Shown here piece by piece: positions 1,404 to 36,911 of a DNA stretch of 60,592 nt. This DNA comes from Nemertoderma westbladi (taxonomy: Eukaryota; Animalia; Xenacoelomorpha). Location of the stretch: positions 1 to 60,592 of the forward strand of contig JAUCBJ010004648.1 in the NCBI GenBank assembly GCA_032718475.1, read 5' to 3'. Below the pieces are notes generated by a model that did no database searches, was not told where the DNA came from, and was given only the letters and a program-made list of their open reading frames with translations. Made by a program: the position numbers and the translations under genes. Position 1 is the stretch's first letter. Each line of letters starts with the position of its first letter.

Positions 1404-2571
1404 TGTACGCGCTTTTGAAGACCTTTAGCAGTTTAACCTGCCAAAATTTATATGTCTTTTGGTTTATAAATAGACTTTAGAAGTTGACAAATATTTAATA
1501 CCAATAAACACAACATTAGCAGAAGCCAGCCTAGTGCGCGTCCATTCACCCGCTGGATATACCCGGGGGGCTGGATTCTGAGGGCTTAGATTATTATTGC
1601 AGTGTAAGCTTACTGTATTATTCGATTGATTGTTAATAAATAATTTCTGACTAATATTATTCACTTTCGGGAAATATTAACAGTTCCTTTAGGACGTGGC
1701 GCTCTATCTAGGTAAACAGAGATATGACTTATACTAATCACAACGGTAAGTCGGTAAGGCTTATGATTCACGTATGAGGCGCATTCTTTAGGAAATGCTT
1801 AGTTATCAGTCACAATCAGGCACACTACCGGTAACACACAATACTGCTCACTAATTTGCAGACCGTCAATGAATTTTATCATATATAAAGAGAACAGCAA
1901 CGGACCCATGTAGTGCTTATCAAATAGCATTAAATTCACTACAAACCACAATAATATAAGTCGCAATCGCTATATATAACCCGTCTCTCTAACCTGTAGT
2001 GTATCAAGAAAATTGGGAAATTTGGGTTCTTTATATATGTTCTCCAAATAATATTCAACCAAAACACAACAGTAAACAGCAGTATAATAATGTATGTTGA
2101 ACCGATAATGTAAGACTGAATTGAGATAAGATAAGATAACAGTTATACGCTCTATAATTTAAGCCTACTAATGTTTCTTCTAAAGTATGAAACGAATTAA
2201 CTTTAGAGCCGGTGTTCCTGGCCTAGATAGAAACAACACAAAGTATCAAAGAAAAAACAGTAAGACTGAACGCTCTAGCATGATCTGCCAAAAGCTCCAC
2301 ATCGACAGAAAAAATCGCTCTAATTGGCTGTTAAGCAAACAAAGAACCATGTGTCCAATGGCCGTTTCCATGTCAGCAACCAGCTGTTAGATGTCGTAAT
2401 CTGAATCATCAAGGCTAAGCTGTGCAAGGGTATTTGGTGCATTGCGGGTTTTTTGCCTTACCATGTCCTCCAAAGCACGTATCTAGAAGAATGACTTTTA
2501 TGTCCGTTAAAACACCTATAACGGTACCTTGCGGGCGAGGGGGACTGAGTATATCCGCAAAAGCTTTTACA
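1404..2571 (-). repeat. 3' LTR of element A (1168 bp)
   Basis: Direct repeat of 18578-19698. By eye it differs by about five substitutions plus a 47-bp segment (2143-2189) that the 5' LTR lacks. Confidence 0.97.
2136..2146 (-). promoter_or_regulatory. Candidate self-primer / transcript 5' end in the LTR (sense ATAACTGTTAT)
   Basis: Exact reverse complement of the 11 nt immediately after the 5' LTR (18567-18577). Confidence 0.6.
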
Positions 2572-2582
2572 CCGCTCCCAGA
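2572..2582 (-). promoter_or_regulatory. Short polypurine tract (TCTGGGAGCGG) abutting the 3' LTR
   Basis: Lies directly before the TGT of the 3' LTR; a degenerate equivalent (TCTGTGAGCAG) precedes the 3' LTR of element B. Confidence 0.65.
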
Positions 2583-2649
2583 AAAAGGGATTCAAGTTTA
2601 TAAATATACAAAAATCACAGTTTCTAATATATGTAAATACTCTAAACAG

Positions 2650-5600
2650 TTAGTCTTTCTTGCGCGGACGGCGTTTACGCAGTTTTTTAAAGCTAGCCAG
2701 AGTCCTTTTCTCTTTGGGGCGAGCCACTTTACAGGGAGGGCTATAACTCCTGGGTGAAGGGTGCAATATGATTGCATCAGAGGGTGTAGGATTATGGTCG
2801 GTGTATCCGCCAGTCGAAGTACCGGGTTGATTGACATCAACGTCGGGGGAGAGGGGTCTAACAGCTTTGAGAGCTCGTTTTAAGACAGCCGCTCTTACGG
2901 GTCCTTTACGAGTGGTCTGAACGAGGGCCGTGGGTGGACCATAGGCAGTTAGAAACCTCCGGGGTTTAATGGTTCTTTCCAACTCGCGTTCGCGGGCTCG
3001 GTATTCGTAAGGCCGTCGATATACTTCCTGTAACTCGGGGTGTGAGTTAACAAACAAGTCTCCATAGTCCGGATCCTGACGGATATAATTGATTAAGTTA
3101 TAGGAATGAAGGTCGCTAGGATTAACACTCCTGAGAAATTTGCGTACGAATTTGGTTGAAATACATTCTCCGACGCGCTTCAGTAGCTCGTAACTCGATA
3201 TGCGTGATTTCTGTTCGACCGAAGCGAATAGATAAGGATGGAACGCATAAACTCCTTCGTAAGCGCGTCCGGGATAATAGCGATGGCGCGAATCACAATG
3301 TAAATCAGCGTTCGCTTCCCAAGCTCTGATGTTACGTAGTGTGATCATTTCATCTACGCTTTCCAAATCGTGATTAAAAGGGCAATCGAAACTGGCATGT
3401 CCCTTTAGCTGACAATGGTGACATTGAGTCATAAATTGAGGGCAAACCGCAAAGATATGCAAGTTATTGAGTCTGCAATATGCGCAATAAATTTCCATAG
3501 TCGGTTGTTCTTGGAAATAGGAACAGCGGACGTTTGTGTCCATGGGCGTATCATGGTCTCTCGATGCACATAACCGACAACGTTGCCTAGAAACATAGTT
3601 GGCATGTTGATAATCGTAAGCAGTGAGACATTGTGGACCTTGATACCATTCTATGATGTAATCGTTGTCGCTGTTCCGGGGCGCGATAGGCTGAATCTCC
3701 TCAGATTCTAGACATATTGGTTCGTCTTCCAAGTGCATAGCCGAGGTGGGCGTGTCTGTCTCTTCAGGCGGACCTATTGTCTGAATTTCCACGACAGAAT
3801 AACCTGTGGGGATTCGAGGTCTTTGTATAACAGAGGAGTGCAAGTTCGATATACAAATCTCTTGGAAAATGGCGAATCCAGCGCTATCCAACTTCTCTGC
3901 AGCTGAGTTTCTTAGGCTGAGTTTGGTCAAAGCGCGGTCTTTAAATTGGCTATCCACGTTGCGGAACGGGGTTAAAAATCGTCGGAAACATTCGAAGCGG
4001 ATGAATTTATTATGTTCATCTAGCTTAGCGAGTTTGGTCCCAAGTATTAATGGATGGGCGCGTATAGTACGACTGCACACATCGGCTAGCCAACCGGCAA
4101 GTGTGGTGTTTTCAAAGATCGTGTATATAGCTAAGGAGGGACGGAGTGGAACACTCATGAAGCTATACACGGCGCCAGGTGCGGTCAATGGTCCATCAAA
4201 GTATAATCGAGAATAATGGTCTCCGTATACTTGTTGATAGTTAATGGGATTTCCGACTTTGAAATTCCATCCGTATTCCTGAAAGGCAAGATGTCCGATG
4301 GAAGTTCGTTGCACCTTTGTAATGTTGCTAGACATGTTAGCATACATGGTGCGGAAGAAACCTCGACCTTCTGCCCAGGGAGCAATCAGCTGAGTATCAA
4401 CGAAAGGGTATGGAATGTTCTCCATATTCCGAAAGTCGTTTTGGAGATCTCCATAAACAGCTGAGCCGATTTTAAGGATTCTTTCGTTGAACAACATCTC
4501 GAGTACGGGCTGGGGTAACATCGATCCATCGATGCCCATGGCCGGTTTGCGTTCGGTGTCAATGACGTAACGCTGCGCGAGTTCGAATTGTCCATGTCGG
4601 AGATTCTTTTGTGTTTCGGTGAGAGTTTCAAAAGAATAATCAATCACGTCGGAACACGCTCGAGTAAACACGTGGGTAGAACCAGCTAATCCGCGTATGT
4701 GGATCATGCGCGTAGTTCCTAGTTCTCCGACCGGAACGCTACCTTCATTATCGTAGGTGACAACTCCATACATCTCAATAACATTAAGAGTTTCATTCCA
4801 CTCCTTGGTGGCGTTCTCTAGGGTCATCCCTACTGGATGCCACAAGGTGGCGCATTGGTTAGCGTCAGGGAGATCGCTATACTTCATGTGCCGAGTGATA
4901 TACGTCTCCACATTTCCATATCTTTGTATTTTCTCTTCATCAAATAATACATCTAGATTCCAATGGACTAATCGAGTTTTAATAAATCCATCGAGATTAT
5001 AAGGGGGTTCTATATCTTTCTCGATTCTAGAAATGTTATATGGTTTTCTAAATGAGTTTACTTTTACTAACTGATCCAGATGTTTCTGCAATTGTTCGAG
5101 TTCGACAATGTCTAGAGGATTTATTAGTGGTAGAAACTTTAAATTATGCGTCGGGTCTTCTGGTTTTACCATATAATATTGAGTCAGATTAACGTAATAA
5201 GGGTGGTCTTTAATCCCATAAAACGAGTTCTGTAAAGGTCTACCGCGTATGTTGACATCGTGTACCATACGACGGACAAGATCCGCTCGATTGTCCGGAG
5301 GTTCAACGAGTATACCGTCAACACGAGCGGCCTCTATCGGCGGACGCTGTAACATAGGGGCGTCAGCGATAAGATTTTGCGATCCTGTACTGATATCAAC
5401 CGGTTGAGGTTGTATCGTCGTGAAGAGTTTGTCTCCGAAATGTGGAATCATCGAGGGATGACGAATGGTTTGAGAGTAGAGGTCTGTCATAAGGATTTGA
5501 GCTTCAGGTTGGGCTAAAGCGGCTTCTTCTCTCTCTTCCAGTTTCGTGTGTTTCTCCTCGAGTAGATTTTCTTCCGCTTGTCTCTGTAAGCGTTCATCCA

Positions 5601-6903
5601 AAAATTCTTGTAGAGAATACGTGCGTCCAAGCTCGATGTCTTCCTCGAGGTTTTGGATTTCTCTATCGAACTGTGGCAAGGCTAGCTCCTTCACCGATTG
5701 GACTTGTTGTTGTAATTTACGTTTCTCTAAACAATCTTGTGTTCCCTTTCCGATCTTCTGTCGAATAGCATCTAAAGCGTTTCTTATAACGCTCTCCTCG
5801 ACTTCCGTGGCGGGTTGCATCAGGTTTAATCCTGGACGATTGTAAGGATCAAAGGGCGATATGAGTTGCCCGCGTCCCAATCCGGCCAAGTAGGATGGGC
5901 GAATGTCTAACGAACCCACTACCGGAGCGCCACCGATTAATTGTTCGGGTAACACTAAGTCTTTGAACAGAGAATATAGTTCGGGAGGATCAGTGATACT
6001 GTTAGGATCAAGAGTTTGAGGTCTCACTAGGGAATGAGGAGGCCTGACCGAGTATTCCGGAACTCTGATCATGGGTTTATTCAGTGATCGTTTAAGACTA
6101 GCGATCGTAGGTGGTACGTCGAACAGGTTTCGCTCGAAACTCCCGTAAGTGTAACGCGTAAAGCTGAGTTTAGCGCAACGTCTCCGCGGATGTTTATGTC
6201 TTTCAGTTTGTTGGTTGGGTCTAGGGCATTCGTCACAATAATACCAAAGACGTACGTCCTGCAGAGGAAACGCGGGTGATCGTTCTCCAGTTTTGCAATA
6301 TTCTTCCATTTGTTCAAAACTATCCGGGATAACAGGTAGTGGACGATCGGCGGTAAGATACATCATCGTGAAATAGAGCCGTTTGAGTTCTACCACAGGG
6401 TCCTGATGTATACCTTGAGGATATCGAGTCTCTAGGTTCTGCTGACTGTCGATGTTGAGATAGGTTTCTCTCAAAAATTCTAGGTATTCGTTGAAGTCGA
6501 TGCGTTTATCCGGTTCTTCAACGTTTTCTCTTTCCAGTCTACTACGAATAGAATTTTCGTGATCTATTCTCGGTTTATCGTTACGACTCCGCTGGGTATG
6601 ATATTTAAATAGAACCATTTCCCTCTCTGTATCTATATCGTCCGTATCATGCAAATCGATAGGATGGCCGGTAGTTAAGAAGTCCATATACGTACCATTA
6701 CGATTCGTATAGCGAGTGGTGAATTTTCGATAGTCCAATTCACGCGCAAGTTGCTCTTGGGACATCGGCGGTTCGATATAACGACCATCGTCCTCCGTAA
6801 TGGTTGGATCGGCTTCACCGCGTATTAAGCTATCCACAAATGCTTGTAAAGGTAGGGCATATCGCTCCCTAATACCAAGATCATCTTCTATCAACTCCGT
6901 CAT
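2650..6903 (-). CDS. Extra ORF3 of element A, 1417 aa: N-terminal Cys/His domain, coiled coil, DEDDy (WRN/RNase D-like) 3'-5' exonuclease, three CCHC-type zinc knuckles, basic C-terminal tail
   Basis: Intact ORF. ExoI VVTYDNEG (D718/E720); ExoII LPQPVLEMLFNERILKIGSAVYGD (D819); FVDTQ; SIGHLAFQEYG; ExoIII-like PLRPSLAIYTIFE (Y927/E931). Knuckles CRLC..H, CAYC..HIFAVC and CHHCQLKGHASFDC. Tail KKLRKRRPRKKD. Confidence 0.85.
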   Translation of the reverse strand: MTELIEDDLGIRERYALPLQAFVDSLIRGEADPTITEDDGRYIEPPMSQEQLARELDYRKFTTRYTNRNGTYMDFLTTGHPIDLHDTDDIDTEREMVLFKYHTQRSRNDKPRIDHENSIRSRLERENVEEPDKRIDFNEYLEFLRETYLNIDSQQNLETRYPQGIHQDPVVELKRLYFTMMYLTADRPLPVIPDSFEQMEEYCKTGERSPAFPLQDVRLWYYCDECPRPNQQTERHKHPRRRCAKLSFTRYTYGSFERNLFDVPPTIASLKRSLNKPMIRVPEYSVRPPHSLVRPQTLDPNSITDPPELYSLFKDLVLPEQLIGGAPVVGSLDIRPSYLAGLGRGQLISPFDPYNRPGLNLMQPATEVEESVIRNALDAIRQKIGKGTQDCLEKRKLQQQVQSVKELALPQFDREIQNLEEDIELGRTYSLQEFLDERLQRQAEENLLEEKHTKLEEREEAALAQPEAQILMTDLYSQTIRHPSMIPHFGDKLFTTIQPQPVDISTGSQNLIADAPMLQRPPIEAARVDGILVEPPDNRADLVRRMVHDVNIRGRPLQNSFYGIKDHPYYVNLTQYYMVKPEDPTHNLKFLPLINPLDIVELEQLQKHLDQLVKVNSFRKPYNISRIEKDIEPPYNLDGFIKTRLVHWNLDVLFDEEKIQRYGNVETYITRHMKYSDLPDANQCATLWHPVGMTLENATKEWNETLNVIEMYGVVTYDNEGSVPVGELGTTRMIHIRGLAGSTHVFTRACSDVIDYSFETLTETQKNLRHGQFELAQRYVIDTERKPAMGIDGSMLPQPVLEMLFNERILKIGSAVYGDLQNDFRNMENIPYPFVDTQLIAPWAEGRGFFRTMYANMSSNITKVQRTSIGHLAFQEYGWNFKVGNPINYQQVYGDHYSRLYFDGPLTAPGAVYSFMSVPLRPSLAIYTIFENTTLAGWLADVCSRTIRAHPLILGTKLAKLDEHNKFIRFECFRRFLTPFRNVDSQFKDRALTKLSLRNSAAEKLDSAGFAIFQEICISNLHSSVIQRPRIPTGYSVVEIQTIGPPEETDTPTSAMHLEDEPICLESEEIQPIAPRNSDNDYIIEWYQGPQCLTAYDYQHANYVSRQRCRLCASRDHDTPMDTNVRCSYFQEQPTMEIYCAYCRLNNLHIFAVCPQFMTQCHHCQLKGHASFDCPFNHDLESVDEMITLRNIRAWEANADLHCDSRHRYYPGRAYEGVYAFHPYLFASVEQKSRISSYELLKRVGECISTKFVRKFLRSVNPSDLHSYNLINYIRQDPDYGDLFVNSHPELQEVYRRPYEYRARERELERTIKPRRFLTAYGPPTALVQTTRKGPVRAAVLKRALKAVRPLSPDVDVNQPGTSTGGYTDHNPTPSDAIILHPSPRSYSPPCKVARPKEKRTLASFKKLRKRRPRKKD

Positions 6904-6944
6904 ATCTGCTATCTGAGTTTATTAATATCAAATATGTTTATATT

Positions 6945-8521: not shown

Positions 8522-11500
8522 TCACGTTGGGGAGTCCCTAGATGTTTGAGGAATTAGGGAGGTGGTCGTGGGAAGAGTGTCTTGCCTTCCATAGTTTCCA
8601 GAGAGTTCTCTGTCTCTTTCCAGTAAACATAAACGACCAACTGGGCGATTGAGTTGTTGCGTCTCAAAGATTATGCCTGGCTTCTTGAAGTTACGCCGCA
8701 TGACGACAAGTTCTACTGAGCGCACTAAACCATCATCCGAGATGTGAGTCTCGATGATACGACCTGTCTGCCACCGTTTACGTGGGAGGTCTTGATCTAC
8801 AATAAGCACCATATCTCCGGCGCTGACGTTTTCTTGCTGCGCAAACCACTTAGTTCGAAGTTGTAGCGTGGGCAGATAATGTTTCTCGAAATGGTCAGCG
8901 AAACGACGGGATAGCAACTGCATAAGTTGCCAAGTTCGACGGCAGTATTCGTCTCCGTCGGCAATCTCCGATCGTGGGAGCATGGCTACAGGTTTCTTCA
9001 GTAGGAAGTGCGCGGGTGTTAGCGCTTCCAGGGAATCGGGACTCGATGAGACTGGCATAAGCGGTCTCTCGTTGAGATAGGCAGCTATTTCCTCCATTAA
9101 CGTCCGCAAAAGTTCGTCGGTGAGATACGCGCGGCATGGCACTATAAAGTGAAATGCGGTTTTGACACTTCGAATTAATCTCTCCCAACTTCCTCCCCAC
9201 CAAGGGGCGTCGGCGGCGTTGAAGGTCCAGCTAGACGCTGTTATCCTTAGCTGGTCGTCCACCTGTCTTTGGTTCCAGTCCTTCACGTAAGCCTGTATTT
9301 CGTTGTTGGCACCAATGAAGTTCGTTCCCTTATCCGATCTCATGGTATTACTCGTCCCGAAGCGAGCGATCTGTCGTCGTAAACTTAATACGAAGCTGTT
9401 GGTAGATAGATCGTTCACCATATCGAGATGGATGGCTCTGCAAGTCATGCATACGAAGATGACACACCATCTCTTGACTATAGTCCTAGCACGATATACT
9501 TCAATAGGGCCAAATAAATCTACACCAGTATTAGTAAAAGGTGGTTCATAGAAGCTTACTCGTTCCCTAGGTAATTCTGCCTCTCGCTGTGTTAAAGGCC
9601 TACTGAATGCTTTCCTACAGGGTATGCAGTTCCTAAGAACTTGGTTCAGAGCTCTACGGGGTTTATCAAAATAATAGCGAGTTTGAATTTCGCTAAGAAC
9701 TCGTTCTCTACCAGCATGATAAAGTTTACTGTGAACATCTACAATCATCTTGATTTGTACTTCAAGATTTCTAATGAGTATGGGGAATTTAGTGTCAAAG
9801 GATAATGGCGCATTGGTGAGCCTTCCTCCAACACGTATTAACCCATCTATCATTGTGCTAGAGAATCGATCCCTTAAGCGCATCTGCGGATTTCTCAACA
9901 ACAGAAAATACTTATCAGAATCCTCATAGCATTGCAGGAGTCTCAGTATCTGCTTATTGGTTTCTTCATGCTCCTGGTAACTAATTTTCTCCTTTAGAAA
10001 CCGGTCGGATGTTTTATATTTGGGTAAATTTTTAATAACATGAACTTGCGCAGATGTCAATGGAGCGGTATCACTAGTGGTCTTAGTCCTGGAGTAGTGA
10101 TGATGAAGACATAGTCTTAAATATGTGACGGCTTTACAGAGCCTATTCCAGGAACTGTAGTGATGCATTGCTCTCTGCAGCAGGGGTGAGATTCCTTGCG
10201 AGACGTCTGGTATTCCAGATTTCCAATCTCTATCTCGAATTTCCGCAACAGACTTATTTGTGGCGAGGGATTGTGGATCCGAAGCATCGTTTCCGGAAGC
10301 ATGTAATACAGATAGATCGATAGTCGGTTTAAATAACTTCGATTTACTCGCCCGGGTTTTAGGTTTGACTGTCTCCGCTCCCTTGGCTTGTCTAATCTGC
10401 GCCGTAGTAAGGTGAGGAGGCCATTCATCCTCTTCCTTGCTCAGGAAGTCGGGTCCACCCAACCAATCTGGAGTATCTATCAGTTCCTGTGGAGTTGCTC
10501 CCCTGGAGGCGATATCGGCTGGATTAATCGTACCAGGGCAATGTCTCCATTGATCTATCTTTGTGCGACTAAGAATAATAGCTAACCTGTTAGTAACAAA
10601 AACGCTGAACTGACAGACTTCATTGGTTAGATACTCCAACACGAGTAAAGCGTCGGTCCAATAAACCGTTTTCTCCAGTGGATAGTCGATTTGTTCCGTT
10701 ACGTTCCGGCCGATGGCTGTAGCGTATAAAGCCGCCTTTAACTCCGCTCGAGGAACCTTTAACTTGTTGTTAATCAATGAGGTAACCAAGGCGACTTTGA
10801 TTCCATCCGGGGTTTCGACTCGCAGATATTCTACTATACCTATTCCCATGTCGCTGGCGTCTCCAAACACATGGAGTTGATAGGAATACGTAGGAAGAAC
10901 ATGGCCAAAATATGCACGGGAAATTATAAAGTTCTCGATGGCAGGTAGAGAATCTTCCCATTTCATCCATTTCTTTAACAATTCTCCCTTAAGCGGATCG
11001 TCCCATGAGTGGTTTTCAAGCCACATTTGTTGTACTAAACTCCGAGCAATCAATATAACTGGGCTTATAAATCCCAATAGGTCGAAATAAGTGCTCAGGA
11101 TACTTAAACAAATCCTTTTGGTCCGAACTGGATTATCTCGCTGTTTTAACTGAAAAAACAGGATGTCTCTTTCAGTGTCCCACTTCAAGCCAAGCGTCTT
11201 GGTTTCAGGAAGATCGTCCTTTATTAAGTCTAGGTCTTTCGCTCCTCGGTCTTCTACCGGTATCGCTTCCAGAAACTCACGGGAGTTGCTGGTGAATTTC
11301 GTCAGTCGAAATCCACCTCTTTTCAAACACTCTACCGTTCCTTTCGCGACATCTATGGCTTCTTCTACTGATGGAAGGGACCTTAAATTGTCGTCCATGT
11401 ATATATTCCGTTTGATGTTGTCTATCACCTCTTTTGAGAAGGCGTCTCGGTTGTCATTCGCAGTGGTTCGCACCACGGAGCAGGCGTTGGAAGGGCTTGA

Positions 11501-14500
11501 TATGATCCCAAAAGCCTGGATGGTCATCCAGTACTCTACCGGTTTCTGGTTGAGGTCTCCTTCAGGCCACCACAGAAATCTCAGACTGTCTCTATCTCTA
11601 TCCAGCGCCTTGACTTGTAAGAACATTCCTTCTATATCGGAGGCGAACGCGATGGAATATTGTCTTAATCTCAAAAGTATTCCCAACAAAGATTGGAGTA
11701 AGTTGGGTCCTGGTAACAACTCGGAATTGAGGGATTGGCCCATATATAGGGCGGAGCCATCGAATACGACTCGTACTTCGTGGGGTTTACCGGGTTTGGG
11801 AACGTAATGATGTGTTAAGTAATACGTTCTCTCAGTCACTGGTGTTCCCTCCGGTACTCGCTCCGCGTATCCCTTTTTTATAAATTTCTTCAATTGAGTT
11901 TGGTACATTTCTTTAGCTGAAGCATTAGCCGTAAGGCGTCGATGTAATTGAGCGATTCTTTTCTCTGCCAAGGGTCTGTTATTTATAAATCTAGGTTCTC
12001 GTTTTCGAAATGGTAGGCCGATTTCATATCTACCTTGGTCCTTTAAAAAACGTGTAGTTGTTTCCTGGATTTGCTTGGCTCTTTCTTCTTCTATCGATAG
12101 AGCCTTATCGTATGAATTGGGCTCTACCAGTTCTTGAGTAAAGAATCGTACGGCTAGTTCGTCCCGAGTTCTAGCGTTGTAGCGCTCTATCTCATCGTTT
12201 AGTTCGTCATTGTAAGCAATGGGTTCCGATGGGCGTATCAGTTGACATAGGTTCACCTGATTTTTCCAAGTTTTGTTTTCTGTAAGTAGGTCGATTGTGT
12301 TCTCTTCATCGAAGAGTTGGTAGATGTCGTCATTATCTGAGGAGTATGGTGTTCCCTCAGTTAGTTCGTCCACCTCACTGCTCTCCTCTTCCCAATCGTT
12401 TACTTGGTATATTCGTTCTTGTGGCATTCTCTCTTCGAGAGTCCTGCGGGAAGGGCCAGTAAAGTACCAACCTACTCTAGTTCTTACTGCATAGGTTTGC
12501 AGTGGCTGCGGTTGAGCAGGCCGTTTCTCCAATGTTTCGAGCGCCTCATGCGCGTTTTGGCCGATGAGTATTTGCACTCCAGGATAATCTGTCTGGAATC
12601 GAGGTATCTTAAGATGTTGGATACTCTCATCCTCGTCCCAATTATAAAGGTCTGCCTGAGTAGTAGCGAAGTTCTTTATAGCCACCATTTTTACCGACCT
12701 TATACCTTGTACTCCTAATTTATCCTGGGGGGTGGACAACACACCTACATAGTAATCTGCCGTTAGGGTAGATTTCCAAACCTGCATAATTCCTGACATA
12801 TTCAATTTAGTCCGGACTTTGGGTTGTCCAGCAAAGATATCTTCGGCTAATTCTTGATCGATGAATGTTCCTGTGCTGCCGGAGTCAAGGAGTGCGTTCA
12901 CTATGTAACTGTGGTTAGGACCGTGAACTCTTACCTGCACTACAGGAAATTCTCTGATTCCTACGTTGGAAGTTGGAGCTTTCCAAGATGGTTGTTTGGC
13001 AAAAGTAGTTGTGGGAAACTCATTGTTGGTGTCCTTTTTATAAGTACACTTTACGTCGGAGTAACAGGTTCGCCGTTGGTGTCCTGGTCTGAGGCAATTA
13101 TAGCATAACCGCTTATCCCATACGACTGCACGTCTGTCTACAAGGGATTTCTTTAGAAATTCAGCACACGCACTCAAACGGTGGGTACCGTCGCACAGCG
13201 CACAGTTAGGTTTTATGTTACTCACTTTACCTTGGTTAACCTGATGCACTCTCGTTCTTTGTTCGGGCTTTCTTACGTGCATTCTGTTAGGGGACTGAGG
13301 AGGGGTCTTGGCAACCTGTTCTCTCCTATCGTTGGTTCGAGCTTTATATTTACTTACGTCTTTTGAGGTTTTGCCAACATAGTAAGATCGATCAGTGTCT
13401 TTCCCGCTGTCCTCTTCTTGAGAAGCTTGGCTTTCGCCGTCGTCAGTGTAACACACCGGTGTTACTCTTCTCCTAGAAGCGGGTTTCTCACTTACCTTAT
13501 TTTCCGATGTTTTCTCTCTGGACTGCTTGATGAGTTGTAGTTTTACTTCACCATCTAAGAAGGACATGAGATCAGCCATGGTAGGGCTTCGTCGTTGTTG
13601 TTCATTCATGTACAACACTTTCTTGTCCCAGCGTGTACATACTCCACCCTTTGGTAAAGTAGAGACTACGGCTCCAATAACCATGGAACTCTGATATTCA
13701 TGAGACTTACCTAACCAGTCCAATTGTCTACAGATCTCCTGAATCTCATCGGAAAACTCTATAATCCCGCTACTAAGGAAGTTTCGGGGGGCTACTAATT
13801 TTGCATACAAATACTTAGCTATGTTATCCTTGTTACCATACCTGATGTTTAATGTATCCCAAACTTGTCTTAATCCTTCTGGATGTCCAATAAACTTTAA
13901 CGCCATTAACTTGGGAGGTCCTTCCAAGCACTTGATGAGGAATCTAAGTTTCTCTCCGTTAGATAGTACAGAGTTCTGTATGCTATCTTTGTAATATTCA
14001 TTGAAAGGTAACCATTTCATCTCATCTCCATTGAATTTAACGATCTCTCCCACTTTGACCGCTTGGCGGGCTTCTGTTCTAGCCATCTGACGCGTAAAGC
14101 TTTCTTGGGCCATCGTGTTATTTAATATCGAATTATCGGTATATAAATTTCTCGGATCATTATCAGGTCTATAGGGAATATCATTAACAACAGATTTATA
14201 ATCACCCTTAATAGGGTTTGCTATAGGAGTTTCTACTTCACTAGCAGTATAGATGCGTGTAGGCTCCACACCTTGCGCATGTAATACTTCAGACCTAACA
14301 GGTTGACACAATGTTACTGGGGGTATTGGTATGCCCTTTTGTATGTTGACTAATTTGTCGCGTTCTAGTGCGATACTTTGCTGCACTTCTTGCAATTCTG
14401 CCCTACCTTCCCTTACTGTTCCCTTAAGTTGGTGGACAGTCTCCTGCATCTGTCCGAGCAGGAGATTCATCCCCCGCCGTCCCTCCTCTACCCACTCGAC

Positions 14501-16351
14501 CGCCGAAGCGGGAGTCGCCAACATTGTAGCGGGCTGACGCGGGACGACGGGAGACAAATCTTTGATTTCTCTCTCAGCTTCCAGGACAGGGATATTCTCA
14601 TGGACTGTTCTACCGGGTACAGGCAGTGTAGTACTGTGCAAAGGGAACTTAGAGTTAAGCTCTGGAAGTACAGGGGTCTCTAGCACAGGAGTGACTTTGG
14701 TAACGACAGGCCTAATTATTTCAGGCTCATCAACTATAGTAGGGAGTTTTTTGACCTTAATAATTTGGTCTGTAGGTTCTATTCTACCTAAGTCTGTGCT
14801 AGCTAGTTGCCTTCTCACAGCTGGGGGCAAATCAGGCAATTTGTGATGGTAAGATGTTTTTCTACGCCTGCTTAGACGAGATCTATTTCCTCCGCCTTCA
14901 GGATCGGTGGTTTCGCTTTCCTCCGATGACGTATATCCCTGGCGTTTGGGAGTAGATCTTCTCATCATCTGCATGTGACTAGCAGTTAACTGTTTATTTA
15001 TGTTGTCTTGCGTCTCTTGCAGATTTTCCAACTCCAGTTGGGTAGTCTCCTCAGAGGCTCTCCGTTCTGCTTCTGCCACTGCCTTAGCTGCTTTTCTTTC
15101 TGCTTCTGCTTCTGCCGCCGCTGCCTTTCTTTCTGCTTCCACTTCGGCCATTGCCGCTGTTACTGCAGCTGCCTTTCGGTCCTCTATCCGTTTTTTCTTT
15201 ACTTGTTCTTCTTGGACTCTAGTGAGGCGGAGTTTTTCATCAAATTCAGCTTGGTTAGCAGCTAACATTTCAGCATCGATTGAGTCTAACACACGCTGGG
15301 TTCCTTCACTATTAGGGGAAAGTCCAGACAGCCGTCTCCTCAACTCTTCGTCTCCTAGGAATCGCTGATAGTCGGACAGATAAATGTCGATGGCGTCTCT
15401 CGTTCGTGGTCTCTCTGCGGTCTCTTCGCCTTCCACTTGAGAAAGGGTGGCATCGGTTGGTTCTTCATAGGTTAGTCTCTCAGACAGCTGGGATTTCCAC
15501 TGGTCCGTTTCTTATACTTTGAGACCTACCCGCTGGAACCAAGTTTTGACAGCAACCTGCAGCGACGTGTCCTGTCTTCTTTTGGAAGTTTCCTCAAAGG
15601 CTGATAGGATTAGTCTAATGCGTAGGGTTCTTTCACGTACTTGATAAAGCAGCTCTTCCTGCTCTTGAGGTCCTTGGGGTTGTCGAAACAATTGTTCTTC
15701 CAATCGCTCTAAGGAGCCGAAGAATCCCTGCACATATCCTGCTGCCGACCTCTTCCAAACAGCTGGATACATCGTATCTTTAGCCACTCCCATCCTGTGT
15801 ATATCTTCCCAAGTAGCTTCGGACAAATCTAACGGGAGTCCGGGTCCGGGAAAGTTCCATTGTGACTCGACAATAGACATCAATTCTTCCCTGGCGTATC
15901 CCGCATAATTATCTTGGGTCGCTCTCATACTTCTCGCCCAATCGGCTTGATGTTCTTCCACCACAATCAATATAGTAGTTAGTACTGCGGCAGGAAGGGT
16001 GAGAAGGGGGTCCGAGTAGGCTGTAGCCGCCATCTGCAATCCGCGTTCGGGGGTCAGCTCTACAGTATCCGAACTACTGGAGCTATCTGATCGCTGGGAA
16101 CAAGTTTCTTGGCTAGGATGTTGCTGCTGTTGGACAGCTGCTTCCTGGTTCCGTTTGACTTGGGCCCGAGTGCCGATGATAGACCTACGGTGTTGGATTA
16201 GCTTAGGGTCTGATACTACTACTGGAGGGATGACCTTTCTTTCAGTAGGAGGTGAGCTGAACTCCTTTCTTAATCGCTCCACACTCCTATCTGTGTCACA
16301 GATGGTTGTATCGATTAGACTGTCTGACAGGTTTTGCTGGGTGTCAGACAT
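8522..16351 (-). CDS. BEL/Pao gag-pol polyprotein of element A (single frame, one in-frame TAA at 15512-15514)
   Basis: ORFs 16351-15512 and 15436-8522 are in the same frame; element B has CAA at the stop position. Motifs: gag KFNGD..W..F, Cys/His knuckles, protease LLDSGS, RT YMDD, RNase H VFGDASD, integrase H..H/CIPC, DLFGP, SDKG, WERLIRSVK. Confidence 0.93.
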
Positions 16352-17688
16352 ATTTAGCTATACAGTTGAATGTCTACTGCTATAGTTACAGTTAAAGCAA
16401 GTCTATTAATTCAGTATGACCGTTGGCCTAGTACCGGTAATTTATTGCAGTATATTAGAATACCGGTATACACTTATAATATATATAAGTATTGTAAACT
16501 AGTTTTGTCACAGAGTACCGATATATAAATTTAGCACAAATATATATAAATATATAATAGGCCTATCGTGAATACCGGTATACAGCTTACACTTATAGTA
16601 TATATAAGTATAATTATGAACTAGAATTAATTACAGAGTACCGGTATGATTTCAGCCCAAATTTATAGAAATAAATATAATAAGCCTATGGTAAATACCG
16701 GTATGTCAATTATTTTAGAATAATTGAATTTCTGAATATTTTAGGGTTACTTGGTTACTTTAACTTACTTTATTACCGTTATTTAAGCAGTAGTCCAACT
16801 GATATTGAGACCTAGTTGTTGGATGGCAGGCCTACTGTTTATAAATCGTTTGAGTTGATTTATAATAGATAGATACCCGTTTAAAATGGGTTTTGTCAAT
16901 ATTTGAAATAAATGTTATTATTTCTGGGGAAGTCACTACACAGAAGCTGTGCGCTCTCAGTGAAGTGCTACTTATGGGACACTAAAACAGATTATTCTAA
17001 TTTACCTAAGTTACTTAATACTACAAATTACTTACGATACGGGTGAAATTAATTCTTTAATTAAAACACAACAAAATATTATGTACGAAATTTTAGGGTA
17101 ATTTTACAGGAAGTCTACAAACCAGCCTAACAAAGGGTTAGAATTCTGGTTATTACAAAGGACAGGGTACTGCGGTATTTGAAAATAATAAGTAGTAGTA
17201 AATATATTGCACTGTCCAGATAGGAAAATACCACCGCCTGACGACCTATAGCCGTATCGCTATAGGTACTACGTTATGTATCACCTACCTGGAAGTTAAT
17301 TACCGCGGACTACCAGATCCAACGTGCCTATTAACCACTTTAGAACACAAATATACTGCCTACACACTAATTACCTTCGGAAAGCACTGTACACTAAACC
17401 CTAAATTAGGTACAAGTACTGGTACAACAAATAATCTGTAGTTAAATATACTTGAACAGTTAAAAGAACCACGGCATCTGCTGGAGTGACCGAAGCACAA
17501 AGTCACCAGTCTTTTCCTACGCCAAGCAGCCCGTGTAGTACCAGGGTTAATTTAACTATAACGGTATGTGTAACAAACACAATTACTGTAGGAATAAACT
17601 TGGGGACATGAATGTTGCGAATAATCGCATAAACTCTGAATAATAAATATTACGCTACCCGTACAGAATACTCAAACAAATACAAACC

Positions 17689-18566: not shown

Positions 18567-18577
18567 ATAACTGTTAT
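18567..18577 (-). promoter_or_regulatory. Non-tRNA primer-binding site of element A (sense ATAACAGTTAT)
   Basis: Directly follows the 5' LTR, lacks the TGG expected for tRNA CCA pairing, and is complementary to LTR motif 2136-2146. Confidence 0.65.
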
Positions 18578-20858: not shown

Positions 20859-21055
20859 CTTAAGTAAATAATCACAATAATACCATTAAAATTAAATATA
20901 ACTAAATTATATTGATATAAAAAATATCCATAAATTTTCCAAAAATATAAAGTTCACAACACTTAACTAATCCTTCTCAGAGCCATAATGTGCTTATTTA
21001 TCAAAAAAATATAATGAGCTACACGACCTTTACCACGACTTTGCCAAACAACAAC

Positions 21056-25071: not shown

Positions 25072-25346
25072 CATATCGCCAAGCTTTTTTAGTTATCTTA
25101 AGATCTATTTTTAAAACTTTAACTTTCATACTCCATTTTAATTACCAAAATAACATATTTTTTTAATTTATATCAAAGCACAATATATTATTACTTAATA
25201 TTACAGTACAAATTAATAATTTTGAATAATTTTACAGAATTTTTAATGTTATGCAAGAAATACTTTATTTGCGAATATTAAAAGAATGAATGATATCCTG
25301 CATTACTGAATAAATTGTATAATATGTGGGATTATTTCACTGTTAA

Positions 25347-26923
25347 CCCTATTAAACCCGGGGGGGGGGGGGGGGGGGGTCAATATGACCCCTCCCGTGG
25401 TTTTTTTATTATAATTCTGAAACAAACGCAGTTGGGAATCTGAAATTTTATGACTTTTCCTAAAAATCTATTGTCTTCCTAGTAGTGAAAACCGTTTTCA
25501 AAAATATTGGGTACTTTTCGAGTTATAGCGCCATTTTTTAACCCTACTTTTGGCACTTTTTTTGAGACGTTTTTTGAAAATTACATTTCATTAAATATGA
25601 ATTGTAACATCTCTATTTTTTATTTACACGGTTTTTTTGGTGTTAGAAATTTGATGGAATTCATATAAATTGATTTAGAAATTTTAAACATGTTTTTTTC
25701 GGTGGGTGCCAAATTTTGGTGCCAGCACCAAATTTTGAAATAAGTCAATTTTGTAAATTGATCGTTTGAAACTTGTTTTTTTACGCAATTGGGGTTTTTT
25801 GGGTTTCTGGATTCGAAGAAATATATACGAGTTGCACCAAGCGTATCAAACTTGTATTTTTCGGTGCTGTGTGCAAATTTTGGTGCTAGCACGAAATTTT
25901 GAAAATCCATTCAATAGATAAAATTGCTTGTGAGAATTTATTTCTTGCGTTTTAGAGGTTTATGGCTGTTCTGAATTCAATGGAAAATATAATTATCGAA
26001 CTAGACATCTCAAACTTGTATTTTTCGGATGTGGGTGCAAAATGTGGTGCTAGCACCAAATTTTGAAAACCATCAAATATATCAATTGATTGTGTCACCT
26101 TGTTTCTTGCGTTATACGGGTTTGTGATGGTTCTGAATTCAATAGAATCAGTAAAAATTTCATAAGAGTTGTCAAACTTGTATTTTTCGCCGGTGGGTGA
26201 AAATTGTTGTGCCAGCACCAAATTTTGGAAAATATGCAAATTGATAAGTAGATAGTATCACCTTGTTTCTTGCGTTATACGGGTTTATGAGGGTCCTGAA
26301 TCCGATGGAATCAATAAAAACTGCACTGGACATCGCAAACTTGTACTTTTTGGTGATGGGTACGAAATTTGGTGCTAGCACCAAAATTTCCCAAATTACG
26401 CCGAAAAATACAAGTAGCAATGATCTAGCATATTAGAAATGTATTCCATTAGAATCCGCGCCCTCGAAAACCTGAAAATGTGAATTTATAGCATCGTATA
26501 AGTGAATTAAAAATTTTGAGTTCTAACTGAAAAGTGCTGGTTACTTGTTTTTTTCATTTTTTTCCTACGCAGAGAGGACTAAACAGCCATTTATAGTAAT
26601 CATATCATTTTTTAATATTTTCCAATGTATTTTACACCCCAGAAAACCTGTATTGAAAAATAATTAGCCGAAAATGTAACTTTCAAATTTGGTGAAAATT
26701 GTGCACGACTTGTAATTTTGGTGCTGCAATATAACCACCCCAGTACATTTTTTCGAAATTTTTTTTTTTCGGTCGGATCCAGACAAGTGATACCTACGTA
26801 CAAACAAAAAATCAGACGTTTTCGTAAATATTTGTAGATTTTAGAGGGGGGGGGGGGGGGGGGGGGTCAATATGACCCTTTCCCGGTATTTGTACAACAT
26901 TTTATAGCCCGGTACTAATAGGG
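25347..26923. mobile_element. piggyBac-like non-autonomous element
   Basis: TTAA on both sides (25343-25346, 26924-26927); CCCTATTA/TAATAGGG inverted termini; subterminal direct repeat G(n)TCAATATGACCC; about five internal ~163-bp tandem repeats; no ORF. Confidence 0.85.
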
Positions 26924-28272
26924 TTAAGGTAGATATCTACAGTACTACGTAAAAAACTTTCTAAATCCGATGTATTTTACCTTGATTTGTAGTTGTTGTA
27001 ATTTGCCTATTTCCTACAATAGTTATAATTTCACTTGGGTTTCCGTTGGCGCAATGGTCGAGTAGGTTAATCTCAGATATCTCAGATTCAGACAGGAAAA
27101 AACCCCGGTCAACATGCATCTCCTACAGGTGCGAGCTGTTGCTGTTTGTCAGTACACGCAAGTACACTTAGGTGCGAATAGCACGCTCTATAATTTGGTG
27201 ATTTGCAGTACTAACAGTACAGTACCGGTTAGCTTTGTAGGCCTTATAGATTGACTGACCTGTCTGATTTCAAAGTATTTGATCAGGCAAGAGGCAGCTT
27301 TCTGCTACTGGCACAAGTTCGGCTAAGCGAGGTTTACTAACATCCTACCGCACCCTTATTTACTGCTGATCACCGCAGTAACAAAGTTCTAGAATCAAAT
27401 TTATATACCAGAGCAGCTATACGTACAAAGTATTGGTAAATTAACCAATAAGGTAGTAAATTAACACCTATTTCCTTATCTCACAATCAGAATCTGGTAT
27501 TTGTGCCAATCACGGGTGTAGTTACTAACACCGTAATTGCCCGGTTGAGTTATTAACGAAGGAGCAGAGAGCCCTTTTGATGTCAGTTTGTAAGTATTGC
27601 AGCTACAACGTGCGACTAGCTTAATCGAGTAGCTAGTGCCCGGTATTGTTATTTTGTTAAAATCACCAAAACCTAATATAACGGCGATACACCAAAATTG
27701 TTTTACTCGTAACACACACACACACACACACGTCTTGGGATCTAAGCTGGGCTACTGATTATGGTACGAATATTCTATTATTTGAGGAGATATTTGGTAT
27801 TTGTTTTACTCAGGCATAGAGGCACCCTTTTGACTGCTATTTTCCTGTCGGCAGTATTGTTTTACGCTAGTGTCGTTGACCTGCTAGCTCGTATATACCC
27901 ATATAAATCACACCGCGGCAAGTTTACAGTATTTTAGGTCCATTAGCGATAGTTAGGATTCGCTCCGCGGGGATTGTTTTCCCGTGAGTTTAGTATGTAT
28001 TGGTAGACTGTACATCTGCCTCACCGGTTAGAGGCCGGGCATCCTGTTTGTCTAGTTAGCCCGGGCATTTGATTTGCCCAAGTATTAGACAGTATAGACA
28101 TCAGGCTCCATTCCCCACCAGTAGTAGTTGGTGTAATTAGTATCTGTTTATTTAGACACCCTGGACTGGGATTTCTTGTCAGATACTGTACGAGCCCGTA
28201 TACACTGCTGGATTATACAGTAAGGTACTTCGTTATTAGGATCTGGTAGGCGGTATACTATTGGACTTATCA

Positions 28273-28281
28273 GTAGGAGAT
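28273..28281 (+). promoter_or_regulatory. Non-tRNA PBS of element D (GTAGGAGAT), repeated three times in ~43-bp units to ~28370
   Basis: Follows the inferred LTR end TTATCA; complementary to ATCTCCTAC at 27118-27126. Confidence 0.5.
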
Positions 28282-29112
28282 ATATAACTATATCTTATTT
28301 AGCTATTGTAACTCAGTAGGAGATATATTAATATATCTTATTTAGCTATTTTTACTCAGTAGGAGATATTTTATACATTAAAATTAGTAGAATTAGTAAT
28401 TTGTAGAATATTTCTTACCGATAGGCCTTTAGGGTAGCTAGTAGTTTTGTATTTGGCTAGCTGTAGATAGCTAGTTAGATTGTAATAATATGGTCTTAGG
28501 CCGTGTATGTGCGGTGTTACTTTTTTCGGTACTTGAAAAGGTATGCAAGACCAATTTGTATCAGTACCCAGGAAAATTTTTTTGTAGAGTAGTCCATAAA
28601 ACTCTCACCTTCGATTTTTCAGGACTCAAGGATTCATTTCTGGACCGCCTCGAAGGATTAGGCCGTTTTTAGCTAGTTTGGGAGGTACACGATTCGTCCG
28701 CGACGCTGGAAACGGAACAGTTCTCGTCCAGTTTGTATCTGGGGATCTGTATGACTGGAAGATCAAAGAAACGTAAGTTTTACGACTCGTGTCGTTTAAA
28801 CTTAGAGCACAGTAGTACTCAAAATTTGTGGGTTCCACTGTCTAATTTATGTGTTTGTTGGTACTTATTTTCCCTAGACATTGCTGTTTTGCCTATTATT
28901 TGTACTTGTTGATATATATTTTGGTAGCGTATACCGCTATCTCACTTATTCATATAGATTTAGCCGGTAGGCTGAATTAGTAATACTTTTATTATATACA
29001 CTTTTTGATTTTATTTGTACTGGTTAGGGTATATATAGTATATATATATATACCAAGGTAAGTTTTGACATTTTGACATTTATTACCCGTATTCGATGTA
29101 TACAATGCAGAC

Positions 29113-34201: not shown

Positions 34202-35361
34202 TGAAAAGTCCAGTAGTATACCGCCTACCAGATCCTAGTAATGATGTACCTTACTATAAGATCTAGTAGTGTATATGGGCTCATACAGTATCTGACAATA
34301 AATCCCAGTCCAGAGTGTCTAAATAAACAGATACTAAATACGCAAACTACTACTGGCGAGGAACGGAGCCTGGTGTCTACTATAATACGTGGGCGAGTCA
34401 AATGCCCGGGCGAACTAGACAAAAAAGGATACCCGGCCTCTAACCGGTGAGGCAGAAGTACAGTCTACGGTGACAGACCAAACTCACGGGAAAACAATCC
34501 ACGCGCAGCGAATCCTAACTATCGCTAACGGACCTAAATACCGTAAACTTGCCGCAGTGTGATTTATATGGTTTATATGAGCTAGTGGATTAACAGACTA
34601 GCGTAACAATACTACTATCAAGCGGTAGCAGTCAAAGGGGGGTAGTACCTAAAGTAACAATACTGCTGACAGGGGCAAAGCAGTCAAAGCATGCCATCTA
34701 AAATACTTGCCGTAAAACTAAATACTAAATATCTCCTAAAATTACAAATACGAATGGTACAACTGCTAAATATCTCCTATTGAAAGTAACCTAAAGTAAG
34801 CAATAACTAGTAGGTCTCGAAAGGGGGTATATATGTTTTAGGACGTGTGTGTGTGTGTGCGTGTTATGAATAAAACAATTTTGGGGTATTTCTGTTGTAC
34901 TAGGTTTTAATGATTTTAATCAAAACAATACTGGGCGCTAGCTACTAAAATAAGCTAGTTGCGCTCTGTAGGTTTAATACTTACAAACTGACAGTTCTCT
35001 CCTTCTTATCCACAACTCAACCGGGCAATTCCGGTGTTAGTAACTACACCCGTGATTGGCACTAATACCAGATTCTGGTTGTAGGATAAGATAATAGGTG
35101 TTAATTACTACCGTACGTAGCTGATCTGGTACACAAATTTGATTCTAGAACTTTGTTAGTGCGGTGGTTAGCAGTAAATACCTCTCAGTATATGGCAAGG
35201 CGCAGTAGGATATTAGTAACCTCCCTCGGCCAAGCATGTGCTGGTAGCAGAAAGCTGCTCCATGCCTGATCAAATATTTCAGGCTCAGACAGGGGCGGGC
35301 AAATGTATAAACTACAAAGTGAACCGGTGGGAAGATGGGGCGACAAACGCTGAGCAAAGGT
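34202..35361 (-). mobile_element. Element C, 3' part: short ORF3 continuation joined to a 3' LTR remnant
   Basis: Continues element C across TSD AAGGT; homologous to 27225-28272; ends in CA at 34202. Confidence 0.7.
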
Positions 35362-35859
35362 TGTAAAAGCTTTTGCGGATATAACTGGCCCTTTTTCTCC
35401 GCAATGTACTGTGTAAGGTGTTTTAGAGGACATAACAAGCGATTTTATCAGCTATGTCTGCATGTGTGCTCTAACGGACATAAAAAGCCAGTTTTCCCAC
35501 AATTCGCTCAAATACTCTAAACTACCTAACTCAAATGACGCAATCTACAAGCTGATTTGCTGTGCGCACATAGCCTCTTTGTTCTGTTCTACCAACCAAT
35601 CAGAGCGATTTCGCCTTGTGTTGGAGAAGGCCTGCAAAAACCCGAATAGTTCGGCATTTAGACATTTGCGGAATCTGTAGAATCTGGAGCTCAGCCAATG
35701 AGAGCTTTTTCTCTTTACATTGAGAGATGCCTACAGAAACCCACGCAATTCAGTCAGTGTGTATCTTTCTAAGCCAGAACACCGGCTTAGGATTCTTCTG
35801 TACTTCTGTAGAAGTTTCAGACTTTGGCCAGAACATTAGATGCCTTTGATTATCGAAAC

Positions 35860-35871
35860 ATAAACTATTAC
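35860..35871 (+). promoter_or_regulatory. Candidate self-primer in the LTR of B (ATAAACTATTAC)
   Basis: Exact reverse complement of 36900-36911; same LTR context as the motif in A; repeated at 47634-47645. Confidence 0.65.
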
Positions 35872-36228
35872 CAACGGTCAATGGTCAACGGTGCACAATC
35901 CACGGTACGGTACCGTACAAAAACAATTACTGCATTATTTCACTGTCTGTTATTAATGGTTAAATCTGTTGATGGATATATTGTTATATTTAGAGAATAT
36001 CGATAAAGAACCCAAAAAACCCCAATCTTATTGATTATTTAAGGTTAGAGGACAGGTTACCGGTAGCAATTGCGACTTACATTATAGTGGTTCTGGAGTG
36101 AATTAAATGCTATTTCATAATCCCTACAGTGTGTCATGTTGCTATCCTCCTTATATATGATAAAATTCAGTAACTGTCGGCAGATCAGTGTGAAGCAGTG
36201 TGAAGTTGTGTGCGGTGATGAGACTGGT

Positions 36229-36507
36229 CTCTCTCGGGGCAAATACCACACCCTGGTTTGCCATTCCACAGGGTGGGTGTCGCAATGGAGTCAGATATGA
36301 GGCCCATCACCCATATCTACTCTGGCGCATATGACCCACCTTAATCCAGGACCAAGGGCGTCCTTATCCCAGAACGAAGGGGGTCCTAGTTACAGGACCA
36401 GATTTGCCCTAGTAAAAGGGGTCATGCAGCTACAGGTGGCACCTCCTTTATGCTGCATGGAGGTGGCAAGTTTTCTTGATCAATGACCTAGAATACCTGA
36501 CCTGACC
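36229..36507 (+). mobile_element. 279-bp SINE-like retroposon with (CCTGA)n tail
   Basis: 13-bp TSD TGATGAGACTGGT (36216-36228, 36508-36520); absent from the 3' LTR; reverse-complement match to 21056-21485. Confidence 0.85.
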
Positions 36508-36899
36508 TGATGAGACTGGTAATAAAGCATCTCCTAAAGAATGCGCCTTTTATGTAAATCAATAGACATCCCGTTGTGTTTAGTGTAAGTCATAACTCTG
36601 TTTATATACTTAAAGCGCCACGTCCTAAAGGAACTGTTAATATTTCCCTGAAAGTGAATATATTGTCAGAGATTATATAGCAACTATCAATTGAATGATA
36701 CAGTAGGTCTACAACGCAATAATAAGTCAAAGCATCCGAATCCAGTCTCCCTTAACAGTGGGTGAATGGTCGCGCATAGACTGGCTTCGGCTAATGTTAT
36801 TTCAGTAATATTAAATTGTCGTAGGCTAAAGTCGATTTATAAATTAGAAGACACCTAAAATTAGCGGGTTAAACTGCTAAAAGTCTAAAAGCGCGAACA

Positions 36900-36911
36900 G
36901 TAATAGTTTAT
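36900..36911 (+). promoter_or_regulatory. Non-tRNA PBS of element B (GTAATAGTTTAT)
   Basis: Immediately after the 5' LTR; complementary to 35860-35871. Confidence 0.7.

Follow-up and report, generated by a model that had tools for sequence, protein, structure and literature searches.

How does an LTR retrotransposon begin reverse transcription when no tRNA-type site stands behind its 5′ LTR? Elements of the BEL/Pao superfamily are described as tRNA-primed, and the ICTV profile of the Belpaoviridae, which regards their replication as poorly understood, lists among their features a polypurine tract, a genome of 4.2-10 kb and an 18-nt site that is the complement of the 3′ end of tRNA-Arg or tRNA-Gly (PMC8742986). 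The stretch of DNA analysed here, referred to as the window, comprises 60,592 nt of Nemertoderma westbladi contig JAUCBJ010004648.1 (GCA_032718475.1, forward strand) and contains BEL/Pao elements for which the initial annotation had proposed self-priming in the manner of Tf1. In the absence of a tRNA-type site, the primer for reverse transcription in these elements is likely to be a short fragment from the 5′ end of the element's own RNA, as in Tf1.

Structure of the elements in the window

Element A lies on the complementary strand and spans 18.3 kb in total. It has a 5′ LTR (18578..19698) with TG...CA ends and a 3′ LTR of 1168 nt (1404..2571); the two differ by five substitutions over 1121 aligned nt and by one gap of 47 nt, which are missing from the 5′ copy. 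The element is flanked by a 5-bp target duplication, GTGTT. The gag-pol region (8522..16357, complementary strand), interrupted by a single in-frame stop between 16357-15512 and 15511-8522, encodes in order the Pfam domains DUF1759, Peptidase_A17 (E 1.6e-30), Integrase_H2C2 and DUF5641, and these domain families recur in the best 120 homologues listed, at 33-43% identity. Element B, on the forward strand, has a 5′ LTR (35362..36899) with an insertion of 292 nt at about 36216-36507, a 3′ LTR (47136..50536) with an insertion of 2155 nt, and a 5-bp target duplication, AAGGT. Its gag-pol and extra ORF (38867..46756) contain frameshifts and internal deletions, and align piecewise to those of A with 62-85% identity. 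By their proteins, A and B are BEL/Pao elements, and the TG...CA LTR ends and 5-bp target duplications found in both are a BEL/Pao trait.

Element B sits inserted within element D of the C family, whose LTR remnant (34202..35328, complementary strand) is without the part expected to hold the motif described below. Element C, on the forward strand, retains a 5′ LTR (25325..28272) that a TTAA-flanked insertion (about 25346-26923) splits close to the start. The 3′ end of this LTR was placed by alignment to the D LTR, and its 5′ start by two contigs of run X4 that read across the insertion point. Both C and D are truncated; the domains found in them are DUF1759, and Peptidase_A17 plus DUF5641. The Gag of C, a distant element, shares 23% identity with that of A, and in a quick tree without named reference clades A and D stand on long branches (1.43 and 2.2). 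We found no relatives of these elements among the viral contigs searched.

Behind pol, A carries an extra ORF of 1422 aa (2650..6918, complementary strand) with no env-like match. It matched nothing in Pfam at E 0.01 and no solved structure, one homologue search was also empty, and a single-sequence structure model (pLDDT 31.5) was unusable. One homologue with a sub-threshold Pfam match is the basis for a weak indication that the ORF possibly encodes a 3′-5′ exonuclease domain with zinc knuckles. In the bdelloid rotifer LTR elements Juno and Vesta, ORF3 is a DEDDy exonuclease (excerpt of PMC5408684). Element A resembles them in having an ORF behind pol that is possibly a 3′-5′ exonuclease; the difference is that this reading is weak in A, which was set beside the rotifer ORFs by description only.

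The sequence behind the 5′ LTR is complementary to the element's own LTR

As had been claimed from the sequence, TGG follows the 5′ LTR in none of the three elements A, B and C. In A, the 11 nt directly after the LTR, the near-palindrome ATAACAGTTAT (18567..18577, complementary strand), are the exact complement of the candidate self-primer ATAACTGTTAT (2146-2136) at LTR position 426, and the annotated coordinates hold. The complete motif is present in the 3′ LTR only, as the 47-nt gap takes its first 5 nt from the 5′ copy. In B, the 12 nt GTAATAGTTTAT (36900-36911, forward strand) are likewise the exact complement of the annotated candidate self-primer at LTR position 499 (35860..35871, forward strand), and also of the motif copy in the 3′ LTR (47634-47645). 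When the LTRs were dinucleotide-shuffled, the observed match length was reached in 6/5000 shuffles for A and 3/5000 for B (medians 6 and 5 nt), and swapped pairs failed, with 5 nt for the A LTR against the B site and 7 nt for the B LTR against the A site. The two motifs are homologous; an indel and two substitutions separate them, and every one of these differences has its counterpart at the site. The initial annotation was right that pairing has been kept; the pyrimidine|A step that it noted at the motif start is seen in both elements. B also contains a second, A-type site (36969..36979, forward strand) within a diverged tandem copy of the unit formed by site and hairpin; this second site finds 7 nt at best in the B LTR and is no match.

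The same arrangement is found in element C, where a 9-nt match links 28273..28281 to the candidate self-primer at 27118..27126 (forward strand), and the match is 10 nt in most other C copies compared. Three 43-nt units stand in tandem behind this LTR (28271, 28314, 28357); the site belongs to the first, and contigs of runs X1 and X3 skip two of the units. None of the splice options tested for A, B and C made the match longer. Contigs of run X5, taken as RNA by guess only, showed no variants inside the A motif among 40 of 87 entries; they did not cover 2041-2327 and contained no GT-AG joint for the A LTR. ARAGORN found no tRNA within the window.

Complementarity is retained in most relative families

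We examined 17 scored families of relatives from metagenome contigs, which with A, B and C make 20 elements, by an anchored test that seeks in each LTR a complement to the bases beginning 0-5 nt behind the 5′ LTR. Of the 17, 16 match their own LTR over 10-15 nt, as compared with 3/380 cross-pairs, although one cross-pair (L025 site against L037 LTR) was as long as 14 nt, and self-matches of about 9-16 nt occur across A, B, C and most readable relatives. The exception, L056, reaches 5 nt only. Eight of the relative LTR ends were picked by inspection, so that those eight are not independent; among the nine families with an LTR end defined by the divergence of two copies, eight match. Two related families, L027 and L041, have changed on both sides and retained pairing. 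A published criterion for predicted self-primers is a match of at least 10 bp, 0-5 bp behind the LTR (excerpt of PMC6317226), and such a match is found in 18/20 elements (A, 11 nt; B, 12 nt; 16 relatives), the C copy here having 9 nt. None of the 20 elements has TGG starting 0-5 nt behind its LTR.

In a blind pass over 34 more loci, matches of at least 11 nt were found in 10/34, as compared with 12/1122 cross-pairs; many of the 24/34 loci below 10 nt have LTRs that are not fully assembled. A junction search without anchoring, over 49 loci, was dropped in favour of the anchored test because it was too permissive (own matches of at least 11 nt in 13/49; cross-pairs, including same-family ones, in 83/2352).

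In 13/17 families, complementarity is seen only when a predicted GT-AG intron (GTAAGT...AG, 66-175 nt) inside the LTR is taken out. Spliced and contiguous forms show no clustering on the tree (5 and 4 changes; 257/500 and 189/500 shuffles gave counts as low), and the one hint at an order of gain or loss is the contiguous L018, which is placed among spliced relatives. All matches, 19/19, end in A-pyrimidine (background 0.12), a count that overstates independence because the families are related to each other; the invariant end hints at a fixed cut site. Taken together, the covariation between A and B, the distant element C and the relative families support self-priming, and suggest that it occurs frequently in the sample of BEL/Pao elements examined.

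Alternative explanations

A variant of self-priming, rather than an alternative to it, places the transcript start 110-125 nt upstream at TCAGTC, with the motif internal and only its last 11-12 bases pairing. In both A and B, CCAAT lies about 55-58 nt before such an initiator-like TCAGTC, which stands at -123 and -110 from the motif. A TATA box at about -30 is lacking in A, B and C, and a start at the motif would demand the splicing of a first exon of 6-11 nt in relatives. This longer primer is a possibility that we do not favour, as the pairing stops after 9-15 nt, the upstream CCAAT/TCAGTC pair is absent from C, and in 14/19 cases (background 0.37, in a window picked after looking) a pyrimidine-A step occurs 12-14 nt away from where the match has its 3′ end. 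The TATA-like boxes found -31 to -34 before the match in only 2/16 relatives, L016 and L012, count for the longer primer by their rarity and against it by their position.

The pairing might instead be structural or regulatory, serving packaging, dimerisation, hiding of the site or marking of spliced and unspliced RNA, while the primer is a host RNA, for instance an internal fragment of a tRNA or another small RNA. Hairpins are abundant in the leader, and the sites of four families (L006, L029, L044, L061) contain GTTCGAA, which we take to resemble a tRNA T-loop. Half-tRNA priming is known in Ty1/copia lineages (excerpt of PMC6317226). We nevertheless judge this explanation unlikely, because the site varies by family, each time tracking its own LTR, because a purely structural helix needs neither a start 0-5 nt behind U5 nor an invariant end, and because a second tRNA-like site at the LTR end is absent in 20/20 elements. 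Chance in AT-rich, palindrome-rich DNA, or a functionless local duplication, could draw on the palindromic A site, the tandem duplications in B and C and the modest length of the C match by itself, but it is largely refuted and highly improbable in view of the shuffle and cross-pair controls, the 13 families that match only once a canonical intron is removed, and the changes that recur on both sides in the pairs A/B and L027/L041.

Discussion

In the self-priming model that we prefer, transcription would begin at the motif or 1-3 nt before it, a start that the pyrimidine-A step supports indirectly. In intron-bearing relatives, splicing would first unite the two primer halves; in A, B and C, the primer would be ready-made, with no splicing needed. 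The transcript 5′ end would then loop back to pair with the site, 0-5 nt behind U5, and be cleaved behind the conserved A-pyrimidine end; the enzyme would probably be the RNase H of the element, as in Tf1. Reverse transcriptase would extend the new 3′ end over R-U5, from about 730 nt (A, and B minus its insertion) to 1150 nt (C), and the nascent strand would transfer to the 3′ copy of R. Plus-strand synthesis would also copy the attached primer and in this way restore the site, so that motif and site would change together. Inheritance of the intron would need a 3′ copy left unspliced, or a primer supplied in trans from spliced RNA. Observations that weigh against the model are the lack of a general R-U5 duplex (below), the local hairpin that contains the A site, a motif:site pair probability of 0.02 when the whole 1.1-kb leader of B is folded (0.63-0.77 for C), the incomplete motif in the 5′ LTR of A, the failure of L056 to match, and the 24/34 further loci below 10 nt.

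Tf1, Tf2 and Tj1 of fission yeasts and the Tf1/sushi group including Tcn1, all Ty3/gypsy, similarly lack a tRNA site and have a short LTR motif complementary to the bases behind the 5′ LTR, with the motif 3′ end facing U5. In Tf1, a second duplex between R and U5 adjoins the primer. We sought a general R-U5 duplex and found 2/18 elements (L027 and C) below z -1.64, with a mean z of 0.08. Pairing in Tf1 involves the first 11 bases, and RNase H cleaves between the eleventh and the twelfth (excerpts of PMC7175516 and PMC4600332). The elements studied here differ in belonging to another superfamily, in the distance of 730-1150 nt between motif and site in A-C, in the lack of a general R-U5 stem, in the intron-split motif of 13/17 relatives, and in a start site and a cleavage that are predicted. 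The annotated label Tf1-like is therefore to be qualified on two points, the general R-U5 stem and, in those relatives, the intron that splits the motif. The proteins are BEL/Pao, not those of Ty3/gypsy chromoviruses; the elements are not members of the Tf1/sushi group, and their resemblance to it is likely a mechanistic parallel only. The plant Ty1/copia lineage TAR (Houba, Osr-1), for which comparable pairing between LTR and site led to a prediction of self-priming, belongs to a different superfamily, and its description in the excerpt of PMC6317226 mentions no intron-split primer. With the Belpaoviridae (Semotivirus), our elements share the Gag-PR-RT-RH-IN order, TG...CA LTRs, the 5-bp duplication, the Pao peptidase, DUF1759 and DUF5641; they differ in having no 18-nt tRNA site, in the 18.3-kb length of A, in a partly purine sequence before the 3′ LTR, and in an extra ORF without env match.

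A broader proposal, which we consider somewhat probable, is that a large and widespread BEL/Pao branch has abandoned tRNA priming and self-primes with the 5′ end of its own RNA, and that in many families the spliceosome joins a first exon of less than 12 bases to the second across an LTR intron, so that replication would depend on splicing. A, B and C would then be long-LTR, intron-free forms, and B would represent a primer switch with the old site kept as a duplicate.

For Ty3/gypsy and Ty1/copia, self-priming is already demonstrated or predicted, and we found no report of a self-priming BEL/Pao element in the literature searched; BEL/Pao would be the third LTR superfamily. Search programs for LTR elements that rely on a tRNA site would overlook or mis-annotate such elements, and the rule of a match 0-5 nt behind the LTR with an A-pyrimidine end predicts both primer and cut site. 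If true, a splice-assembled primer would tie reverse transcription to host splicing, and would pose the puzzle of an intron that survives in a repeat copied through RNA.

Elements within the Window

The window consists of eukaryotic DNA with nested mobile elements. Element A (19698 to 1404, minus strand) has LTRs of 1.1 kb and is flanked by a 5-bp target duplication. Element B (35362 to 50536, plus strand) sits inside element D, and element C begins near 25325 and runs up to the LTR of D, which truncates it at 34202. The polyprotein of A matched DUF1759, Peptidase_A17, Integrase_H2C2 and DUF5641, and the best 120 homologues listed were BEL/Pao-type proteins (33–43% identity). Some of these protein families are also present in C and D, whose proteins have diverged far from those of A (Gag 23%, Pol 37–45%). 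Comparing the 5′ with the 3′ LTR shows 5 differences over 1121 aligned positions in A and 15 over 1245 in B. In A, an ORF of 281 aa and the 2329-aa polyprotein are divided by a single in-frame stop (15512–15514, minus strand). The 3′ LTRs of A and B are preceded by only partly purine bases (2587–2572, minus strand; 47120–47135, plus strand), with a T-run followed by CTGGGAGCGG in A or CTGTGAGCAG in B; most relatives have a G-rich tract instead.

The 5′ LTR of B carries a 292-nt insertion (36216–36507) resembling, at 93% identity, two pieces of 21056–21484, the region upstream of a degraded LINE-like element at about 21000–24170; a 2155-nt insertion in its 3′ LTR (47770–49924) has no other match within the window. 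A piggyBac-like non-autonomous element flanked by TTAA, with termini of G runs and internal repeats of 163 nt, is present at 25346–26923, inserted 21 nt into the LTR of C, and at 55091–55536, and has very high depth in the run contigs.

Behind pol, A has an extra 1422-aa ORF (6918–2650, minus strand), with homologues in B (45530–46756, plus strand) and, partially, in D (51135–50938, minus strand). A search of 1.84 billion representatives gave a single homologue of this ORF (P0122, E 1.9e-7), which shows a sub-threshold 3′-5′ exonuclease match (E 0.2) and zinc knuckles. The ORF of A itself has candidate D-x-E (723) and K-x-G...D (816–824) motifs and C-terminal CxxC clusters, and its product may be a DEDD nuclease resembling the rotifer ORF3s described in passages of PMC5408684.

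Pairing between LTR and Primer Position

The initial annotation had claimed that the bases directly behind the 5′ LTR are the exact complement of a motif within the LTR, and we confirmed this for 11 nt in A (site 18567–18577, motif 2136–2146, minus strand) and 12 nt in B (site 36900–36911, motif 35860–35871, plus strand). Dinucleotide shuffles of each LTR reached the observed length in 6 of 5000 cases for A and 3 of 5000 for B. As also claimed, the sequences differ between A and B yet the pairing is kept: the motifs are alignable homologues whose differences, two substitutions and an indel, each have a mirrored counterpart in the sites, and exchanging LTRs and sites between the elements reduced the match to 5 and 7 nt. 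B has, 69 nt further downstream, a diverged second copy of the site-plus-hairpin unit that retains the sequence of A and has lost the match to the LTR of B, from which we infer that the A-type site is older and that the first site of B changed along with its motif. The picture is not fully clean: the 5′ LTR of A lacks 47 nt, including the first 5 bases of the motif, and the site of A is a near-palindrome within a local hairpin.

Alignment with the LTR of D puts the LTR end of element C at 28272; the 9 bases directly behind it (28273–28281) are the complement of 27118–27126. The TTAA-flanked insertion interrupts this LTR; two contigs of run X4 span the insertion point and agree with the window as far back as 25325, placing the motif inside the LTR. 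In contigs of the sequencing runs X1 (18), X3 (17) and X4 (2), which make up the entire depth at this position or close to it, base 27117 differs from that of the window and pairs, giving 10 nt. The site of C is tripled in the window copy; two units are absent from the contigs of X1 and X3, and the three-unit tandem is private to this copy as compared with the run contigs.

The leaders behind the LTRs of A and B (18577–18480, minus strand; 36900–37030, plus strand) share short perfect hairpins and palindromes in series, possibly packaging or dimerisation signals. The tandem duplication of the site region in both B (36900–36979, two diverged units) and C (28271–28399, three units) suggests a hot spot of slippage or strand transfer.

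Survey of Relatives

A scan of metagenome contigs, seeded with the nearest homologues of A and uninformative about insect or nematode BEL/Pao clades, yielded 69 loci. We scored 17 distinct families with a readable LTR and LTR end, plus A, B and C, by the longest exact complement beginning 0–5 nt behind the LTR, contiguous or across a GT[AG]AG...AG intron. The match was at least 10 nt in 18 of 20 (exceptions: C, 9; family L056, 5), as compared with 3 of 380 cross-pairs. TGG, reported absent behind the window's 5′ LTRs, occurred within 0–5 nt in none of the 20. In 13 families the match was found only across a predicted intron (66–175 nt, GTAAGT donor in all), and it was contiguous in three relatives and in A, B and C. 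Eight of the nine relatives whose LTR end was set by divergence of two copies were positive; the eight with ends picked by inspection, which are for that reason not independent, were all positive. For L023 and L056, the exact end base was corrected visually. The single long cross-pair, a 14-nt complement of the L025 primer site at L037:1064–1077 (U5 region), may be chance or a relic.

A blind test of 34 additional loci, requiring an A-pyrimidine end, gave at least 11 nt in 10, versus 12 of 1122 cross-pairs; four positives were spliced (one being the family of L030) and six contiguous. The remaining 24 stayed below 10 nt; the LTRs of many of them were only partly assembled. The other 18 loci comprised six copies of scored families and loci that were short or left out.

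Shape of the Match and Possible Start Site

The 3′ end of the match is A followed by C or T in 19 of 19 cases (background 0.12), and the base after this A-pyrimidine end is C in 13. In all 13 spliced cases, 5–8 paired bases come from the second exon. In 14 of 19 cases, a pyrimidine-A step is located 12–14 nt before the 3′ end of the match (background 0.37; interval picked after looking at the data), a position that would suit a transcript start immediately ahead of the paired bases. Two observations speak against such a start: A and B carry CCAAT and TCAGTC sites 110–180 nt upstream, and only L016 and L012 showed a TATA-like box, at −31 to −34. A second R-U5 duplex, also searched for, was not a general feature (2 of 18). 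Whole-leader folding predicted pairing probabilities of 0.02 in B and 0.63–0.77 in C; computed folds of 1.1 kb that take no account of chaperone proteins carry little weight in either direction. In a quickly built tree that leaves the placement of A unsure, L018 (contiguous, 177-nt LTR) is sister to the spliced L027 (99% support) within a spliced group, which fits intron loss in L018.

Discussion

These elements have no tRNA-type site; at the primer position they carry an element-specific complement with a fixed 3′ end, which covaries with the LTR motif and in many families is split by predicted canonical introns. The earlier suggestion of self-priming is thereby supported and, with the complements in relatives, widened. 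On these comparisons, we consider it probable that the BEL/Pao elements here prime by their own RNA; if so, the motif more likely than not represents the first bases of the transcript. Transcription would begin at the motif, and the RNA would be spliced at the predicted joint, fold back and be cut by RNase H, with strong-stop synthesis across 730–1150 nt. The site would be regenerated when the attached primer is copied, and the intron may persist through a 3′ R copy left unspliced or because the primer is given in trans.

Passages of PMC6317226 describe self-priming in Tf1/Sushi, Tcn1 and TAR, with a 10-bp criterion, and passages of PMC7175516 and PMC4600332 the mechanism of Tf1 and Tj1. Term look-up in the BEL/Pao surveys PMC3118150, PMC554778, PMC2774666 and PMC6238403 gave no PBS or tRNA passage. 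In the literature covered, which also takes in parts of PMC3601003, PMC5408684 and PMC6934838, we found no report of BEL/Pao self-priming; Repbase Reports, GyDB, subscription journals, primary Tf1 papers and supplements may hold one. The ICTV profile gives the BEL/Pao site as 18 nt, for tRNA-Arg or tRNA-Gly (PMC8742986). Self-priming here would be a known mechanism, in a new variant, in a superfamily profiled as tRNA-primed.
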